DNA from: a virus
Lineage: Duplodnaviria > Heunggongvirae > Uroviricota > Caudoviricetes
DNA: 64,000 bases
IMG/VR virus record: IMGVR_UViG_3300042554_002914
Direction: 5' to 3' (one strand)
This document shows, one piece after another, positions 46,462 through 59,466 of the stretch (positions are counted from its first letter, which is position 1; each line of letters opens with the position of its first letter). The position numbers were made by a program, and so were the translations under genes. The notes beneath the pieces were generated by a model. That model had not been told where the DNA came from. It ran no database searches and saw nothing but the letters and a program-made list of their open reading frames with translations.

Positions 46462-46665
46462 TTGTGGTTTGGTGGTTGTTGGGGGGTAGGACGAAGTCAG
46501 TATAGCACGTTTTCCTGGGGTTTATGCCTGGCTAGCCTTAGCAGCTTCCACAACCTGACGCAACCGGAACACTGTTGCGCGGTCTGGCATGTGGCGATTG
46601 GATATCCCAAAGAAGTCCCAAACATAGCCGTAAGCATAAGGGGAAACCAAAGGTTTCCAGGCGGT

Positions 46666-46929
46666 TTACCGCCCTTCTAGTTCGTCGGCCAGGGCCAGGA
46701 GAGCTTCCCGGACAGAATCGTTACGGGCCTCTAGACCTTGGTCGTATTCTAAGTGCCCTGAGAATGATTCATAGTTTTCAGGTGAAACCTGATCCGCAGC
46801 GGCGCGGAGAACGGCAGCGGCGTCTACTCTCGCTTGTTGTTGCTCAGATAGATGCGCCGCTTCATTCAAAACGACATTCAGCACTGCCTGCGCGGAGTGG
46901 GAAAGGTTTGTCATTTGATTCGTTTCCAT
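46666..46929 (-). CDS. hypothetical protein (apparently leaderless)
   Basis: 87-aa ORF. The ATG lies about 6 nt after the -10 box of the class-III cassette. Confidence 0.4.
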   Translation of the reverse strand: METNQMTNLSHSAQAVLNVVLNEAAHLSEQQQARVDAAAVLRAAADQVSPENYESFSGHLEYDQGLEARNDSVREALLALADELEGR

Positions 46930-46935
46930 GCGCTC

Positions 46936-47001
46936 ATCATAGCATTTTCGCCATGCAAAAACAAGGGTGCGAACCGAACCGGCTAGGGCGGTTAACCGTC
47001 C
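46936..47001 (-). promoter_or_regulatory. class-III cassette: GGCGGTTAACCG palindrome, hairpin, TTGTTT-N17-TATGAT, leaderless start
   Basis: -10 is at 46936-46941 and -35 at 46959-46964, with a spacer of exactly 17. The palindrome is at 46986-47001. The ATG is at 46927-46929. Confidence 0.55.
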
Positions 47002-47229
47002 CCTAGGGCAACGAGAAGAGTTGGGGGATTTATTTAACGTCTAATTTGTATATATCGTTTAAAATAACGCTAACATCAATTTCTTCTTCTGGCTCATCTT
47101 CCCCGTCAACCCGAAAGTAATCATAGTAATTCTCTAGATATGTGGCCAAGTCTTCCAGTGCCTCTTCCATCGTATGGAATCCAAACCATTTCGACTCATG
47201 GTGTCTTCTCGCAAGGTTCGAAGAAGGAC

Positions 47230-47622
47230 TCAACTGCCAAGTCCACCGATCCCACCATTCACCCTCATCTCTTTTCGGAGCGTGGGAAATTGTTTGTCTT
47301 CAGTTACCTTCGAGTCAATTACAGGATACAGCAGTTTTAAGGTGTTTTCCGCGCCCCAACTTTGTATTAGGGGTCCACTCTTATAGCTTGACAGTTTCTG
47401 TTTGTCCCTCCTGTAGACTTTAAAGCATTGCACCATAGCGTAACCTGGTGCGTTGGGATGAGGGAAGTACTCCTCAACAACTTCAAAAAGTTCAAATTCT
47501 AGGCCGTCACTTTTAGTAAAGTAGCATATATGTTTCGTCTTTAGTGGGGGGTCATCGGTGTTTACAAAGTAAACATGTGTTTGCTCTTCGTTATTCTCTG
47601 TAACTTGTTTACGGTCAGTCAT
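47230..47622 (-). CDS. hypothetical protein
   Basis: 130-aa minus-strand ORF. Confidence 0.4.
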   Translation of the reverse strand: MTDRKQVTENNEEQTHVYFVNTDDPPLKTKHICYFTKSDGLEFELFEVVEEYFPHPNAPGYAMVQCFKVYRRDKQKLSSYKSGPLIQSWGAENTLKLLYPVIDSKVTEDKQFPTLRKEMRVNGGIGGLGS

Positions 47623-47756
47623 TGTTAGCGATCAGAAAAGTCGGGAGTATCCAAATAAGTATAGTGGTATTGTAGACCTATAGCAAGGTCGGTTAACCGT
47701 CCTGCCCATGGAAGCAACTTTCAATCGGGAATTCAATTAGGCATTTCATGGCGAGC

Positions 47757-48122
47757 CTATTTGCCTTCGTAATGGTCTAGAGCGATTTTCTTAGCGTGTT
47801 CTTCGTCTGTTGCCCAACAATACGTCTTATAAGTATGATCAATTCGGTCACCTTTATAATTACGTGAGTAATCCCGTTTAGGCCTTAAACCATATCCGGG
47901 CTCCACTATATAACATTTTCTAATTTCACCGAAGAAAACATCCACGAACCAAAATTGTTGTCCTGGCGGGTGTTCTGTGAAGGGATTCAAATAGTGCTCT
48001 TGGATTTCAGAGTAGGGGATATCTTTCTGTGCATCCTCTGCGAGTTCCACGGTTGAAAACAGTCCAATAATACACGATTCCTCTGTTCCAGGGGAATATA
48101 TGAGAGCGTAGATGGTTATCAT
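47757..48122 (-). CDS. hypothetical protein (paralog of 53281..53676)
   Basis: CWATDEEHAKKIALDHY in this ORF matches CWARDKEHAEKIALDKY in the paralog. Confidence 0.45.
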   Translation of the reverse strand: MITIYALIYSPGTEESCIIGLFSTVELAEDAQKDIPYSEIQEHYLNPFTEHPPGQQFWFVDVFFGEIRKCYIVEPGYGLRPKRDYSRNYKGDRIDHTYKTYCWATDEEHAKKIALDHYEGK

Positions 48123-48192
48123 TTTTTTTGTTTTGAGGTTTGGGGATACCTTAATTCACCAAATTTTTGTCTCAGGGATTCAAACATTTACT

Positions 48193-56856: not shown

Positions 56857-56886
56857 TGGTTTGTGCGTTGTGGTGTTTACGAAATG

Positions 56887-56951
56887 ATTATACCGCTTTT
56901 GCCTCTCACAAACAAGGGTCTAAACCGAAGGTTTAGGTTCGGTTATCCGCC
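56887..56951 (-). promoter_or_regulatory. class-III cassette (TTGTTT-N17-TATAAT plus CTAAACC/GGTTTAG hairpin)
   Basis: -10 is at 56887-56892 and -35 at 56910-56915. The hairpin is at 56920-56936. Confidence 0.55.
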
Positions 56952-57605
56952 CTCACCGCAAATAGCTTCTTGAACTTCTGCAGGAAACATAGCGATTCTT
57001 TGTTGGTTAATTTCATTAAAGTCATATCCAGCAACTTTCGTATCCCCGTAATGGAGCAACCAAAGGAAAGGTTGTTCGATCCATTTTTTCATGAAAATCC
57101 CCGTATCCCTGTAGTTGTCAAGGCGGTGTTTAAACCCCTCCCGCGCATCAAAGTCTCCACACCAGACGTATTTACCGTTCGGCCCTTCAACTGCAGTACC
57201 ACTAAAGCCACCCCTATATGAATTGTCACTAGCTGGCAAATAGTTAAAGAATGCTTTGGCACCATTTAGAGATCCTCTAAAAGAATCATAAACCACCAAA
57301 ATACCATCCTTCCAGTCAATAAACCATTCGTCTTCACTATTTGGAATGAATCCACTGGCAACCGATTTGAACCCCATACTATCCATTAAAACAACAAATT
57401 CAGCAAACTCCATCCCGTAATAAGAGTCTTTGTTGGTCTTCAGTAGTTCTTTTTTCTTTTGATTGTTGTCAACTGCCAAAAGAAGTCCAATACTGGAAGT
57501 TGCTTTATCATGTTTGTAGCTGCGGCCTGTCATGATTTCAGCTTCTTGCAAGGGGTCAAATCCTAGAAGCTCGTCCAGGTTGTCGTTGGGGAACTGTTGG
57601 GTCAT
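56943..57605 (-). CDS. hypothetical protein
   Basis: 220-aa minus-strand ORF. Confidence 0.4.
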   Translation of the reverse strand: MTQQFPNDNLDELLGFDPLQEAEIMTGRSYKHDKATSSIGLLLAVDNNQKKKELLKTNKDSYYGMEFAEFVVLMDSMGFKSVASGFIPNSEDEWFIDWKDGILVVYDSFRGSLNGAKAFFNYLPASDNSYRGGFSGTAVEGPNGKYVWCGDFDAREGFKHRLDNYRDTGIFMKKWIEQPFLWLLHYGDTKVAGYDFNEINQQRIAMFPAEVQEAICGEGG

Positions 57606-57656
57606 TGACTTTTGGGGTACGGGTTTGTAAAAAAGGGGGGGGGGTCAAATCCAAGG

Positions 57657-58208
57657 TCATCCTACACTGACTGTCTCCTGGGGGCTATGGCGGTTAACCG
57701 CCCCCCAGATAGCTGCATTCCTAGCTGCGGATAACGCAACAGGGTTACGCGAACTATTTCCACTACCATTGAACCACTTGCAACACTCAAGGTGAAAGTC
57801 CGGCTGATCCAGTGGAGAAGCCCCAATGTAGCCCCCAGATGAACGCCACTCAGGTTGGTTTCCGCAAAAGGGGCAATTCGTATTTTTCACACCTACGATT
57901 TCAAGTATCTTCCCGTTGAGGTGGGAAATGCCAACCGGAATTTCGGCCCATTCTATCAAACCTTCTGGTAAGAGCAGGCTGTATCCGTCCCAGTAGTCGA
58001 ATTCAGGAGAAATTACGTCTCTGTAACCAGCCCATCGAGCCCGTTGTTCCGATGTGAAGATTAATGTAAAGGATTTACTTTTGTGAAGCATTCTCCAAAT
58101 GTATCGGCCTTCGGGCGGTTTGCTTTTGGAGTAATCATGAAAGACCAACCCCTCAAGACCAGGTAGGTCAGACTTAGATTCAGGCATGGGGTGAGGGGTG
58201 TCGTTCAT
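57657..58208 (-). CDS. hypothetical protein (leaderless start)
   Basis: 183-aa ORF. The ATG lies about 6 nt after a TATAGT -10 box. Confidence 0.4.
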   Translation of the reverse strand: MNDTPHPMPESKSDLPGLEGLVFHDYSKSKPPEGRYIWRMLHKSKSFTLIFTSEQRARWAGYRDVISPEFDYWDGYSLLLPEGLIEWAEIPVGISHLNGKILEIVGVKNTNCPFCGNQPEWRSSGGYIGASPLDQPDFHLECCKWFNGSGNSSRNPVALSAARNAAIWGAVNRHSPQETVSVG

Positions 58209-58213
58209 ACCTA

Positions 58214-58279
58214 TACTATACTACCTTCGCCCCGCAAAAACAAGGGTCTAAACCGGGGGTTTAGGTTCGGTTAACCGCC
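58214..58279 (-). promoter_or_regulatory. class-III cassette (TTGTTT-N17-TATAGT, hairpin, CGGTTAACCGCC palindrome), leaderless
   Basis: -10 is at 58214-58219 and -35 at 58237-58242. The hairpin is at 58248-58264 and the palindrome at 58268-58279. The ATG is at 58206-58208. Confidence 0.55.
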
Positions 58280-59466
58280 TACTATCCACATAGAGCGACC
58301 ATCGCCCTGCCCAAATGATTCTCCCTCGGGGGTTAAAACTATTTGAAGGGTTAGAGTTAATCCATCTGAAGTTTCCGATTCCCCCAGAGTCTGAACTAAT
58401 GAAGCCAAATCTGCAATCAATGAGCGGTGGAATGTTTGACTCACTATGGTCATAGTTGCTGGGGCAACCCATAACCTCAAAAGAGGACTTTACTCGTTGA
58501 AGCCAACGAAGGAAATTTGTAAGGGGGCTCATTTTTTTAATTGCGCAGAGTAAGCTTCGTCATTCAACTATAATAGAAACCATTGCTTTTAAACTTTACT
58601 TTGCCACCTTTCAAGGTCACAACCCACTCTTTCTTTGTATAAGTTAGGAATTTACCATCGAATTTAAAAGACTTGATGGCAGTCAGGATGATGGTGTGGC
58701 CAGGGTCCCGGAGAAAGAGGCTCTTGGCATAAGAACGGGCTCGTTTCGAAGTGTCGAAAGTTTTGCCTATACTGAAATTTAATTCTTCAACTAGTTCTTC
58801 ATTGAGATGTAAATCACCTACACTCCACCGCCCGCGTGATAGTATGTCCTTGTGTTTAATTTTCATGGTCCTCATTCTCGTACTCTTGCAGAACCAAGGG
58901 GATTCCAGAGATGAGTACCGTTACACCCAGTAATATAGGTGGCCAGCCCTGTAGCAATGCTGCGAATGTTGACACTGCTGCCAAAAGTAGAAAGTAGGTA
59001 GTTTCGGTGTGATTCATTTTCTAGGGGTAATTTTTTGGAATGTTGACTCAAAGAGTATATCCTCAGCTAGCTCCTTCGGTGAAGCGTACTCTAGAAAAAC
59101 TAGGTAGCTATCTGTGGTGAAATCCTCGGACGGTATAATCTGATTATAAGAGCAAACCTTTTTACGGGCTCGCATAAGTAGGATTTCATGCTTAGTTTCT
59201 TCATGCAACCAGAAATCACCCATATTGATCTCAAGAGTCATATAAGTCCCAGAGATTTTCCCGAAGGGTACGTTCGAAATCAGGGTCAAGGTTCTTTGAT
59301 TTTTCAAGTAAGTCGTGGTGGATATTCCTTAGTTCCTCAATCACTTTACTATCCAACCTCCGGCTAGTTTCATGGCCTGAGACCCGTCCCAGGGCTACCA
59401 ATTCACACTCATTCAGTAAATCATCTTCGCTAAGAAAATCATCAAAGCTGCTACCCACATGGCAAA

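Follow-up and report, generated by a model that had tools for sequence, protein, structure and literature searches.

A unit of about 75 bases, consisting of short stem-loops and a bacterial-type promoter and then often a start codon without a leader, is repeated in the window, the whole 64-kb stretch of phage DNA analysed here. The repeated layout is real and chance is ruled out; its anatomy, family-wide conservation and clustering, and the mosaic junctions found at it, are direct observations. With a probability of roughly 0.6, each copy would be a composite regulatory and recombination cassette, similar to the PeSL elements of T4-type phages, that spans the gap between co-directional small genes.

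In the layout of the cassette, the 5' half runs from the upstream stop codon through a short CGG-N4-CCG stem-loop and usually a second stem-loop with a CGGTT box, and the 3' half comprises a -35 box (TTGTTT), a 17-bp spacer forming an inverted repeat of 6-8 bp, a -10 box (TAtnnT), 6 nt and a purine at the predicted +1. An RNA polymerase of sigma-70 type, for which the host enzyme is the simplest candidate, would initiate at this purine, giving a leaderless mRNA where +1 is the A of an ATG and otherwise a leader of 16-24 nt without a Shine-Dalgarno sequence. The upstream stem-loops, together with the U-rich CUUGUUUYU, would attenuate or stop transcripts of the preceding gene, so that each small gene would become an insulated unit. 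The common sequence of about 75 bp would also act as a linker for phage recombination, at which modules may be exchanged, duplicated or deleted, sometimes precisely at the ATG.

Distribution and anatomy in the window

The window is part of a 284-kb metagenomic contig from an uncultured freshwater phage. All copies lie on the gene (minus) strand between 42,780 and 58,280, in a block of co-directional, tightly packed genes. A glutamine riboswitch is also present within the block and hints at a cyanobacterial host. The core CGGTWWACCG has eight matches in the window against 0.12 expected, all within 42,780-58,277, and GGCGGTTAACCG with up to two mismatches has 19 against 3.3 expected. CTTGTTT-N17-TATNNT occurs four times (0.10 expected), a count reached in none of 100 shuffles. 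Nine palindrome copies are contained within 15.6 kb, and both the window's remaining 48 kb and 10 kb outside it are free of them. The individual features are as follows.

42741-42791, minus: proximal-type cassette; palindrome GTCGGTTTACCGCC 42778-42791; -35 TTGATT 42771-42776; -10 TACAAT 42748-42753; predicted +1 G 42741; C/A-rich leader of about 70 nt up to an ATG near 42668.
46642-46673, minus: half cassette; palindrome GGCGGTAAACCGCC 46660-46673, its internal TAA being the stop of ORF 46666-46929, followed by stem-loop GGAAACC-TTT-GGTTTCC (a compensated version) 46642-46658; no recognisable promoter.
46927-47001, minus: full cassette; palindrome GACGGTTAACCGCC 46987-47000, then 21 nt; -35 TTGTTT 46959-46964; spacer TTGCATGGCGAAAATGC, an imperfect inverted repeat; -10 TATGAT 46936-46941; ATG 46927-46929, predicted leaderless, of ORF 46666-46929.
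47651-47701, minus: proximal-type cassette; palindrome GACGGTTAACCGAC 47688-47701; -35 TTGCTA 47681-47686; -10 TATACT 47658-47663; predicted +1 G 47651; gene ATG 47622.
53157-53206, minus: proximal-type cassette before Rnl1; core CGGTAAACCG 53197-53206; -35-like TTACCC 53189-53194; -10 TATACT 53166-53171; ATG 53157-53159, predicted leaderless.
54886-56918, minus: duplicated module; paralogous small genes 54886-55185 and 56542-56856, each behind a cassette.
55207-55281, minus: full cassette; palindrome GGCGGTAAACCGCC 55267-55280, directly past TGA 55283-55285; -35 55239-55244; spacer CTGCCACGCAGACACAG; -10 TATGAT 55216-55221; predicted +1 A 55209, codon ATA, in frame with ATG 55185.
56878-56951, minus: full cassette; palindrome GGCGGATAACCG 56940-56951, with internal TAA as stop of ORF 56943-57605; stem-loop CTAAACC-TTC-GGTTTAG 56920-56936; -35 56910-56915; -10 TATAAT 56887-56892; predicted +1 G 56880, codon GTA, in frame with ATG 56856.
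57689-57702, minus: isolated palindrome GGCGGTTAACCGCC within a longer inverted repeat CTGGGGG...CCCCCAG; no class-2 (cassette-type) promoter downstream; a mosaic junction, at which similarity to contig L011 begins exactly.
58206-58279, minus: full cassette; palindrome GGCGGTTAACCGAA 58266-58279; stem-loop CTAAACC-CCC-GGTTTAG 58248-58264; -35 58238-58243; -10 TATAGT 58215-58220; ATG 58206-58208, predicted leaderless, of ORF 57657-58208.

The four full cassettes lie on the minus (coding) strand where the first-pass annotation had placed them, and all share the promoter-like part it had described, with CTTGTTT, 17 nt and then TATGAT, TATGAT, TATAAT or TATAGT (46936-46965, 55216-55245, 56887-56916 and 58215-58244). 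Their palindromes, which it had called perfect or near-perfect, are near-perfect and never perfect (GACGGTTAACCGCC, GGCGGTAAACCGCC, GGCGGATAACCGAA, GGCGGTTAACCGAA), and each of the four has exactly 21 nt between palindrome and CTTGTTT. The CTAAACC-nnn-GGTTTAG hairpin, attributed to each of them, is present only at 56946 and 58273, and other short pairings take its place at 46993 and 55273. An ATG about 6 nt past the -10 box, claimed for two cases, is found at exactly 6 nt at 46929 and 58208, and a third occurs at the same distance at 53159. The partial palindromes near 46660, 47688, 53197 (immediately ahead of Rnl1, core 53197-53206) and 57690 are likewise present, and a ninth copy at 42778-42791, beyond the range covered earlier, carries TTGATT-N17-TACAAT. 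In the copies at 42784, 47694 and 53200 the palindrome directly abuts the -35 box, and no promoter can be recognised after those at 46666 and 57695.

Related contigs and mosaic junctions

A first scan of viral contigs returned 24 stretches, 10 of them without other similarity to the window, and a second returned 47, on some 20 contigs of up to 279 kb. Sequence totalling 517 kb from approximately 20 related viral contigs contained about 85 distinct cassettes, and outside the cassettes many of these contigs show no DNA similarity to the window. Searches of 185,579 bacterial and archaeal genomes and of 50,697 phage records gave no match to the cassette core, and no Rfam family matches the cassettes. 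Family-wide conservation of TTGTTT is by construction, because this -35 box was included in every retrieval pattern; copies anchored on the palindrome have other -35 boxes, and some family copies lack the distal palindrome.

The cassettes occupy entire intergenic gaps, beginning at the upstream stop codon, and similarity between relatives frequently ends within them. Among 36 cassette pairs with a homologous flank, a count that covers cassettes only and has no matched control of other intergenic gaps, 21 share only one flank (15 downstream and 6 upstream). Breakpoints fall inside the cassette, as in the pair L040 and L056, which are identical up to and including the ATG and unrelated thereafter. 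Similarity between the window and close relatives breaks off at 53208, 55204, 55245, 56919 (twice) and 57703. In L018, a 94%-identical relative, similarity stops at 53208, and the stretch between two cassettes, about 55245-56918, is missing. The duplicated gene modules ascribed to the block by the first-pass annotation were also borne out by the paralogues listed above. It is quite likely, judging from these junctions, that the cassette acts as a recombination linker.

Promoter features and stem-loops

Start point, promoter activity, termination and factor binding are predicted here from the DNA sequence. Retrieval of one set of 42 copies made no use of the -10 box or the start. In 41 of these, TAnnnT follows TTGTTT after 17 bp, and all 41 have a purine exactly 7 nt past the -10 box; the start codon is at that purine in 17 of 41 (14 ATG and 3 GTG), family-wide backing for the leaderless reading put forward for the window. 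Across 72 non-redundant copies the +1 base is A in 48 and G in 24, and never C or T. ATG or GTG is at +1 in about 45% of copies overall; of 81 copies counted, 38 have it there, and 29 of these 38 begin ORFs of 41 codons or more. Where +1 is not a start codon, the first suitable ATG mostly follows 16-24 nt further on and lacks a Shine-Dalgarno sequence. The spacing of TAnnnT, the invariant purine and the start codons at +1 support a sigma-70-type promoter with an often leaderless mRNA; the cassettes very likely act as promoters and, with somewhat less assurance, are likely to give leaderless starts. At Rnl1, the ATG at 53159 opens the conserved N-terminus MENLRHYLIDW and is exactly at the predicted +1, and the annotated start (53213 or 53219) is probably wrong. 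Conservation extends over about 41 nt, from about -47 to -7, spacer included. The cassettes had also been proposed to form a distinct promoter class, which holds. The first class, TTGAC-N15-17-GCTAnnnT, has 20 copies in the window against 0.34 expected, at 499-39,921 and 62,175-62,294 with none in between, and the cassette class differs from it in its weak -35 box and lack of an extended -10.

The inverted repeat in the -35/-10 spacer is maintained as a structure. It is 92.7% paired, compared with 38-61% when the partners are slid, and has 15 double-sided changes against 4.1 in shuffles, a value reached in none of 500; its fold has a mean z of -2.8 relative to dinucleotide shuffles. Other compensated versions include GTCTCTGC/GCAGAGAC and CTTTCC/GGAAAG, and C(UUCG)G is one of the variants. 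Upstream, 43% of copies have stems of 7 bp or more, compared with 9.9% of shuffles, and the second stem-loop has compensated versions CTAAACC/GGTTTAG, GGAAACC/GGTTTCC, GGAAGCC/GGCTTCC and GAAAACC/GGTTTTC. The upstream ORF stops 0-8 nt before the first stem-loop, or at the TAA within the palindrome. Of 72 copies, 46 have the final upstream helix no more than 3 nt from CUUGUUUYU; this U-tract contains interruptions and is separated from the stem by 4-7 nt in some copies. In the window, most upstream folds have no stability beyond that of shuffled sequence (z +0.36 to -1.57), the copy at 46666 alone standing out (-18.4 kcal/mol, z -2.8), and family-wide the mean z of the upstream region is only -0.8. 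There is no strand preference for wobble pairs (G:U versus A:C, 14:10 at free positions) or for fold energy, with the antisense fold of equal or greater stability than the sense fold, so this comparison gives no support to a role at the RNA level, as a terminator. A generic terminator scan flagged three stem-loops of the window as terminator-like, with no excess of such sites in the region (18 versus 18.1). The chances that the stem-loops function as a terminator or attenuator appear about even.

Each cassette has two or three short stem-loops, of which the palindrome is one. CGGTT boxes lie at about -45 and -64.5 from the predicted start, 21-22 bp apart; the box 11 nt ahead of CTTGTTT is in the 3' arm or loop of the second stem-loop, and at its fixed distance from the -35 box CGGTT is 82-97% conserved whatever the surrounding structure. 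Conservation of the CGG/CCG core and CGGTT as sequence, beyond structure, fits protein recognition better than a plain terminator and keeps alive the tentative idea that a dedicated factor also binds the CGGTT box or palindrome. As a stand-alone operator of fixed sequence, the role suggested for it earlier, the palindrome did not hold up: only CGG-N4-CCG and the CGGTT box are conserved and the outer arms vary. Such an operator is also unsupported because the palindrome is at or contains the upstream stop, has two window copies without a promoter and marks recombination junctions.

Competing explanations and known systems

It is rather unlikely that the palindrome is primarily an operator bound by a dimeric regulator, from phage or host, that controls a separate temporal promoter class, with stem-loops and recombination secondary. 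The CGGTT conservation, the weak -35 box without an extended -10 and the spatial separation of the two classes would suit such a regulator, as would the position of the palindrome, whose centre is near -43.5 (proximal) or -64.5 (distal), a difference of exactly 21 bp or two helical turns; at least 56 of 79 distinct family palindromes precede a -35/-10 pair in either register. Activator-dependent promoters of the CRP/FNR family, including cyanobacterial NtcA, have palindromic sites at class II and class I positions, canonically -41.5 and -61.5, and a palindrome of 10-14 bp beside a weak -35 box or two turns upstream is reminiscent of these. However, its sequence is unlike their sites, its centres are 2-3 bp off the canonical positions and it also occurs at gene ends, where the two promoterless window copies sit. 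The right half varies, as do the outer arms, only 26% of the copies whose retrieval did not depend on the palindrome have a matched -34/-23 pair, and the distal palindrome can be missing. No HTH or sigma family, and no regulator gene, is among the families shown for the window's proteins, the analysis having covered 64 kb and a further 10 kb of the 284-kb contig. An operator and a composite cassette are not mutually exclusive.

Recognition of the region from about -47 to -7 by a phage-encoded sigma factor or phage RNA polymerase would account for conservation beyond the needs of host sigma-70, and for the absence of the core from the genomes and phage records searched, yet is improbable. The invariant positions are those of the sigma-70 family (TA...T, TTG 17 bp upstream, a purine 7 nt downstream), the spacer is conserved by co-variation and not in sequence, and neither a polymerase nor a sigma gene was seen across the 74 kb sampled. 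The virion RNA polymerase of phage N4 uses hairpin promoters at which the start lies about 11-12 nt from the loop centre and which have no -35/-10 hexamers; they share with the cassettes the short stems (5-8 bp) and 3-nt loops within a phage promoter region, but the spacer loop here is centred near -24 and the hexamers belong to the sigma-70 type. Still less probable is a mainly RNA element in read-through polycistronic transcripts, serving as processing sites or 3'-end protectors with an incidental TATAAT-like box. Compensatory changes and a few G:U pairs, both seen in the second and third stem-loops, the C(UUCG)G variant and the closely packed co-directional genes are in its favour, whereas the lack of a sense-strand preference and of an Rfam match are against it, and it leaves the invariant TA...T, the +7 purine and the exact ATG unexplained. 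That the copies serve the upstream genes purely as intrinsic terminators and have no promoter role is hardly credible. Stem-loops that begin at the stop codon and adjoin a U-rich tract, three of them terminator-like in the window, and two promoterless copies would be expected of terminators, but the -10 and +1 signatures, the exact ATG placement, the Rnl1 N-terminus at +1 and the lack of a regional excess of terminator-like sites count against this. Between terminator and promoter, the findings point rather to a composite that is both.

Leaderless mRNAs from sigma-70-type promoters include lambda cI from PRM and those of many actinobacterial genes. The cassettes resemble these in having TAnnnT 6-7 nt before an ATG or GTG predicted to be the first transcribed base, with no ribosome-binding site, and differ in being repeated and mobile in a phage that probably infects a cyanobacterium, rather than scattered host genes.

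The nearest known system is the composite terminator-promoter cassette of T4-type phages. In T4-type myoviruses, promoter-early and promoter-middle stem-loops (PeSL/PmSL) combine a sigma-70-like promoter of N17 spacing with a stem-loop over about 100 conserved bp, are dense where small genes of unknown function abound, and are found at insertions, deletions and replacements, with degraded 'half' copies; the -35 consensus in the Vibrio phage pair nt-1/KVP40 is TTGYVH, and promoter, terminator and mini-circle activities have been demonstrated (Arbiol et al. 2010, PMC2839356; Comeau et al. 2014, PMC4122927). The cassettes described here similarly join a -35/N17/-10 promoter with one or more stem-loops between upstream stop and downstream start, are concentrated as many repeats in a block whose small genes have unknown functions, and lie at insertions, deletions, replacements and duplications between relatives, half copies included. 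They differ in carrying two or three stem-loops, and the activities demonstrated for PeSLs are here putative. What is new is the phage lineage (a 284-kb freshwater phage with a DnaN-type clamp, which may not be T4-like), the absence of a Shine-Dalgarno sequence, with the start codon at +1 in about 45% or behind a C-rich leader of 16-24 nt, and a GC-rich upstream region with CGGTT and CGG-N4-CCG boxes where that of PeSLs is AT-rich. In this phage family, the cassette is probably both the switch for each small gene and a site at which genes are swapped between phages.

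Palindrome cassettes and other repeats in the window

Four cassettes, units of about 75 bases between small genes in which short stem-loops precede a sigma-70-like promoter, have the full (distal) layout, with the palindrome 21 nt before CTTGTTT. They are named by palindrome centre.

Full-layout cassettes in the window, read along the gene strand
46993, gene strand (-): GACGGTTAACCGCC, 21 nt, CTTGTTT, 17 nt, TATGAT, GAGCGC, ATG
55273, gene strand (-): GGCGGTAAACCGCC, 21 nt, CTTGTTT, 17 nt, TATGAT
56946, gene strand (-): GGCGGATAACCGAA, 21 nt including CTAAACC-TTC-GGTTTAG, CTTGTTT, 17 nt, TATAAT
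58273, gene strand (-): GGCGGTTAACCGAA, 21 nt including CTAAACC-CCC-GGTTTAG, CTTGTTT, 17 nt, TATAGT, ATAGGT, ATG

The motif CTTGTTT-N17-TATNNT occurs four times in the window against 0.10 expected, and CGGTWWACCG eight times against 0.12 expected, always within 42,780-58,277; a looser 12-mer palindrome gives 19 matches against 3.3 expected. Nine palindrome copies lie in 42.78-58.28 kb, the ninth at 42,784, and none was found in the remaining 48 kb of the window or in the 10 kb past its end. The palindrome abuts the -35 box in three copies (the proximal type; 42784, 47694, 53200), and at 46666 and 57695 it stands without a recognisable promoter. At 46666 and 56946 the palindrome loop carries a TAA that serves as the upstream stop codon. 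The small genes of the cassette block are without Pfam match. The first-pass annotation had correctly proposed a second promoter class in this block: palindrome cassettes are confined to it and the other class is excluded from it. The repeated layout that it described is likewise real, given the motif counts, and needs minor correction. The palindromes are near-perfect, none of the four being perfect, and the CTAAACC hairpin assigned to all four is present in 56946 and 58273 and absent from the other two.

The other class (class 1) has the form GGGGTTGAC(A/T)...TGCTAnnnT and lies in intergenic regions outside the cassette block. The pattern TTGAC-N15-17-GCTANNNT gives 20 matches against 0.34 expected in the window, all on the gene strand, at 499-39,921 and 62,175-62,294 with none between. 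In the fuller layout, GGGGTTGAC(A/T)-N12-14-(T)GCTAnnnT, the spacer contains a conserved CGGCA(A/C)C(A/G)TGC, a stretch that is sometimes a short inverted repeat, such as ATGCC-TT-GGCAT at 6575-6603. A generic promoter/terminator scan returned counts equal to shuffled expectation and did not separate the classes, so that custom patterns were needed.

Several other repeats accompany the genes. C/A-rich repeats such as CAACCACAAGCCAACCACAAACC stand directly 5' of most window ATGs, replacing a Shine-Dalgarno sequence (for example 49445-49500, 61875-61920 and 42669-42745). A motif GTATAAATACTTA(C/T)(C/T)nAC (-) recurs directly 3' of stop codons at 9-17 kb, often just before a class 1 promoter (approximately 17110-17125, 13860-13875, 12320-12335, 11730-11750, 9290-9300 and 9175-9190). 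A poly-C/poly-T tract, CCCCCCCCCCTTTTTT, at 57615-57650 (-), lies 5' of the gene at 56943-57605; its length varies among the window and the related contig stretches L011 and L018, which suggests a slippage-prone sequence. Three tandem copies of TAGTTTACCAG, the third ending ...ACCGG, occupy 56240-56295 (-) just 3' of the stop of ORF 56294-56545, and are followed by a promoter-like site, TTGCCT-N16-TATACT.

Predicted promoter and start point, and inverted repeats across the family

A scan of IMG/VR with GGCGGWWAACCG-N23-CTTGTTT-N17-TAT returned 24 stretches, 10 of which have no further similarity to the window. A second scan, with the spacer inverted repeat alone, returned 47 stretches from the same approximately 20 contigs, the largest of 279 kb. 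A loose pattern applied to the 517 kb of collected sequence yielded about 85 real cassettes among 92 distinct matches. All copies beyond the window were retrieved with cassette-derived patterns, and each feature was therefore judged on the subset retrieved without that feature. The cassette core has no match in 185,579 bacterial and archaeal genomes, and hence neither a host-side counterpart nor a prophage copy there; blastn with the consensus cassette against 50,697 phage records also gave no match.

In the set retrieved with the spacer repeat only, TAnnnT stands at 17-bp spacing in 41/42 copies; in 41/41 readable copies the base exactly 7 nt past the -10 box is a purine, and it opens an ATG in 14/41 and a GTG in 3/41. 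The predicted +1 position is A in 48 and G in 24 of 72 non-redundant copies, and never C or T. In 38/81 copies exactly 6 nt separate the -10 box from an ATG or GTG, against 1 in 32 by chance, and 29 of these 38 open an ORF of at least 41 codons. In the remaining copies the first ATG with a good ORF is mostly 16-24 nt further on, and the C-rich sequence there lacks a Shine-Dalgarno motif. TTG at -35, a spacing of 17 +/- 1 bp, TAnnnT and a purine 6-8 nt downstream are all present at the level of sequence. The TTGTTT form of the -35 box was imposed by the search patterns, and palindrome-anchored copies have varied boxes (TTGTTT, TTGGCT, TTGCCT, TTTACC, TTGTCT). The -10 spacing, the purine at +7 and the ATG/GTG placement are the signature of a sigma-70-family promoter with a predicted start point that is often the A of the start codon; the comparative counts support the promoter and the putative leaderless start put forward in the first-pass annotation.

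Its two predicted leaderless cases (46993 and 58273) stand, and a third candidate lies in front of the RNA ligase gene Rnl1. The N-terminus MENLRHYLIDW, conserved in relatives, begins at ATG 53159 (-), which follows TATACT by 6 nt. Relatives do not conserve the called ATG at 53213, 18 codons 5' of it; the Rnl1 start was probably mis-set in automatic annotation (53157-53219, -). The +1 codon at 55209 and at 56880 is ATA or GTA and shares its frame with an ATG eight codons downstream. The leaderless start seems to have been lost in these window copies, since the homologous gene in a relative (L042) has ATG at +1.

Upstream of the promoter, the strongest conservation outside the hexamers is CGGTT(T/C)nCnCC, beginning 11 nt before CTTGTTT. 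A second CGGTT lies inside the palindrome, 22 bp further upstream, and in the proximal type the palindrome supplies the box itself; these registers place the palindrome centre at about -64.5 or -43.5 from the predicted start. The collected sequence contains 79 distinct palindrome-anchored copies, for at least 56 of which a -35/-10 pair stands downstream in one or other of the two registers. A CGG-N4-CCG core and the CGGTT box are conserved in two fixed registers 21 bp apart, and outer positions vary; in copies retrieved independently of the palindrome, the CGG/CCG core alone is well paired, and the pair that adjoins it on the outside matches in 26%. The second stem-loop shifts in register from copy to copy and occurs in compensated versions (CTAAACC/GGTTTAG, GGAAACC/GGTTTCC, GGAAGCC/GGCTTCC, GAAAACC/GGTTTTC) as well as wobble variants. 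Mutual information over the upstream region recovered the spacer repeat and one palindrome pair and missed the second stem-loop because its register differs between copies. The best pairing joins the right half of the palindrome (AACCGnn) to the proximal nnCGGTT in 27/72 copies.

Upstream stems of at least 7 bp are present in 43% of copies against 9.9% of shuffles, and the gain in fold energy across the family is modest (mean z -0.8 against dinucleotide shuffles, 81% below zero); in the window these energies are mostly unremarkable. The stop codon of the upstream ORF falls inside the first stem-loop or shortly before it. The last upstream helix ends at most 3 nt from CUUGUUUYU in 46/72 copies, with an interrupted U run, short stems and no strand bias in folding. 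The upstream part looks like a weak terminator or attenuator that would reuse the -35 T-run. A plain terminator without promoter, as another reading of the whole unit, conflicts with the -10, +1 and ATG signatures. Covariance models of Rfam 15 gave no match over any cassette.

The spacer between -35 and -10 also forms an inverted repeat, most often GTTTCTGC-nnn-GCAGAAAC in an alignment of the stretches from the first scan; the paired stretch runs from the G of TTG as far as the C three bases short of the -10 box. Its positions are 92.7% matched, against 38-61% with the partners slid, and double-sided changes number 15 against 4.1 in shuffles, none of 500 shuffles reaching 15; the mean z is -2.8. 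In the window the repeat is partly degraded. A single operator sequence is ruled out, since one contig carries several compensated versions side by side (L007, L022 and L023, all from 3300044645_002359). The versions found, some of them within one contig, are TTTCTGC/GCAGAAA, TTTTCGC/GCGAAAA, CTTTCC/GGAAAG, GTCTCTGC/GCAGAGAC and GTTTTC-TTCG-GAAAAC. U:G intermediates were dropped as evidence for RNA: wobble and A:C counts in the repeat are 14:10 at free positions, and sense and antisense fold energies have no bias, so that neither gives a usable strand preference, and the spacer repeat could be an RNA hairpin, a DNA hairpin or a symmetric protein site. A hairpin promoter of the N4 type has the wrong geometry: it starts approximately 11-12 nt past the centre of a 3-nt loop and lacks -35/-10 hexamers, whereas in the cassette the spacer loop centre is 24 nt before the conserved purine and sigma-70-type hexamers are present.

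Any residual chance of something more unusual lies in this spacer repeat and the sequence-conserved CGGTT boxes. The two or three stem-loops might be extruded DNA hairpins or cruciforms, and not just terminators, that would be read by a phage-encoded recombinase or transcription factor; stems of 7-8 bp, 3-nt loops, structure kept while sequence drifts and one stem that starts inside the -35 box would suit this reading, which is nevertheless considered highly improbable. The factor could be a structure-specific recombinase, in which case the cassettes would be integron-like, with site-directed capture and exchange of ready-to-express leaderless gene modules, or else a supercoiling- or hairpin-dependent transcription factor that would set the timing of the palindrome class.

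Candidate sites for a binding factor are the palindrome box CGGTTAACCG and the CGGTT boxes. The HTH search suggested in the first-pass annotation brought up none in the sampled part of the genome: among the top 25 Pfam and PHROGs families listed for all 121 window ORFs there is no HTH, sigma or RNA polymerase, nor did Pfam find one in ten block proteins or in ten large ORFs from related loci. The palindrome-binding regulator and temporal class that the annotation envisaged may exist, though the cassette evidence does not require them. The best-supported function of the cassette, as judged from sequence comparison, would be that of a composite terminator-promoter-start unit that also serves as a linker for gene shuffling.

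Mosaic junctions, genome and likely host

Similarity of the window to its close relatives ends inside cassettes, at 53208 and 55245 (L018), 55204 (L010), 56919 (L011, L015) and 57703 (L011), and in the alignment at 57695 it begins exactly at the palindrome. L018 is without approximately 55245-56918, an inter-cassette stretch that carries one copy of a duplicated module. Among cassette pairs with at least one homologous 150-nt flank, both flanks are homologous in 15, the downstream flank only in 15 and the upstream flank only in 6, counted at cassette gaps only. In anchored alignments the switch points fall within the cassette; L040 and L056, for example, are identical through the ATG and unrelated beyond. 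In the window, L010 and L028, one and the same upstream gene is followed by three different downstream genes. The copies in L001-L005 are identical or near-identical to the window and offer no variation for comparison.

The window is part of the JGI metagenome contig Ga0453110_0000004 (284,095 bp; exact-protein match), and the same sequence was found in a second JGI metagenome, sample 3300002835. All its long ORFs are on the minus strand and its GC content is approximately 46%. Pfam matches include CysRS, a DnaN-type clamp, two RNA ligases including Rnl1, NADAR, NAPRTase and a DUF2828/DUF7788 protein, and ARAGORN reports three tRNA genes. Megablast of the block against the 50,697 phage records gave no match, and tblastn with Rnl1 and DnaN gave distant matches only (identity at most 32%); with no close phage record, the window belongs to an uncultured giant phage.

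The block also contains, at 54023-54100 (-), a full-length glutamine riboswitch (Rfam RF01739, scoring 46.4 bits where the threshold is 35). It sits in a 180-nt gap 5' of the 70-aa ORF 53784-53996 and hints at glutamine-sensed expression of a small phage gene. This riboswitch family occurs in cyanobacteria and their phages, and the host is therefore probably a cyanobacterium. RNA-repair and translation genes are concentrated at 13874-15328, 44371-45468, 52050-53159 and elsewhere in the window, and comprise Rnl1, a second RNA ligase, an AAA_33 kinase-like protein, a phosphoesterase, a tRNA nucleotidyltransferase, CysRS, an AlaRS-related fragment, NADAR and several tRNAs. The Rfam tRNA model also matches end to end at 36996-37109, 37217-37346 and 37593-37710 (-), each 114-130 nt; these loci, missed by ARAGORN, look like tRNA genes with insertions of approximately 45-60 nt that have a common motif like GATAGTTCAGCAAT. 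Just outside the cassette block, an HNH endonuclease gene at 60959-61552 (-) (Pfam HNH, 5.6e-16) may be a homing element and a further contributor to local gene exchange.

Likeness to promoter-early stem-loops

The promoter-early stem-loops (PeSLs) of T4-type phages are composites of a sigma-70-like promoter (N17) and a stem-loop, conserved over approximately 100 bp, with the stem-loop upstream of, overlapping or between the hexamers; they are dense in hyperplastic regions whose small genes lack a known function, mark sites of insertion, deletion and replacement, and leave degraded half copies (PMC2839356, PMC4122927). Their termination, promoter activity and mini-circles were studied by reporter assays and inverse PCR (PMC2839356), and they were judged sparse in cyanophage S-PM2 (PMC4503421). 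The cassette fits this description point by point, as a promoter-stem-loop composite in a dense small-gene block, at exchange points and with half copies. It combines sigma-70-like -35/-10 boxes at approximately 17-bp spacing with at least one stem-loop in a conserved unit of up to about 100 bp, fills the gap from upstream stop to downstream start co-oriented with the genes, and recurs in many copies within a hyperplastic block where the genes are small and of unknown function; counted at cassettes only, it also lies at points of insertion, deletion or replacement between related phages.

The two differ in lineage: the cassette phage, which is not evidently T4-like, has a DnaN-type clamp and no close relative among phage records. 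The cassettes are without a Shine-Dalgarno sequence and often leaderless, and their upstream region is GC-rich with conserved boxes, not AT-rich. The cassette would thus work like a PeSL but lies outside the described T4-type set, and the literature searched reports no PeSLs outside T4-type phages. PeSL-like logic in an unrelated family of uncultured freshwater giant phages suggests convergent or widespread use.

The cassette goes beyond the PeSL in that the linker often stops exactly at the start codon, so that a swapped-in gene would gain both a promoter and a start of translation without an untranslated region that it must match. Such leaderless translation would be unusual if the host is a cyanobacterium. 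The family provides about 85 natural variants of one promoter architecture, a set directly testable for strength, leaderless translation, termination and factor binding, and 'plug-and-play' linkers of this kind could be a general means of shuffling accessory genes.
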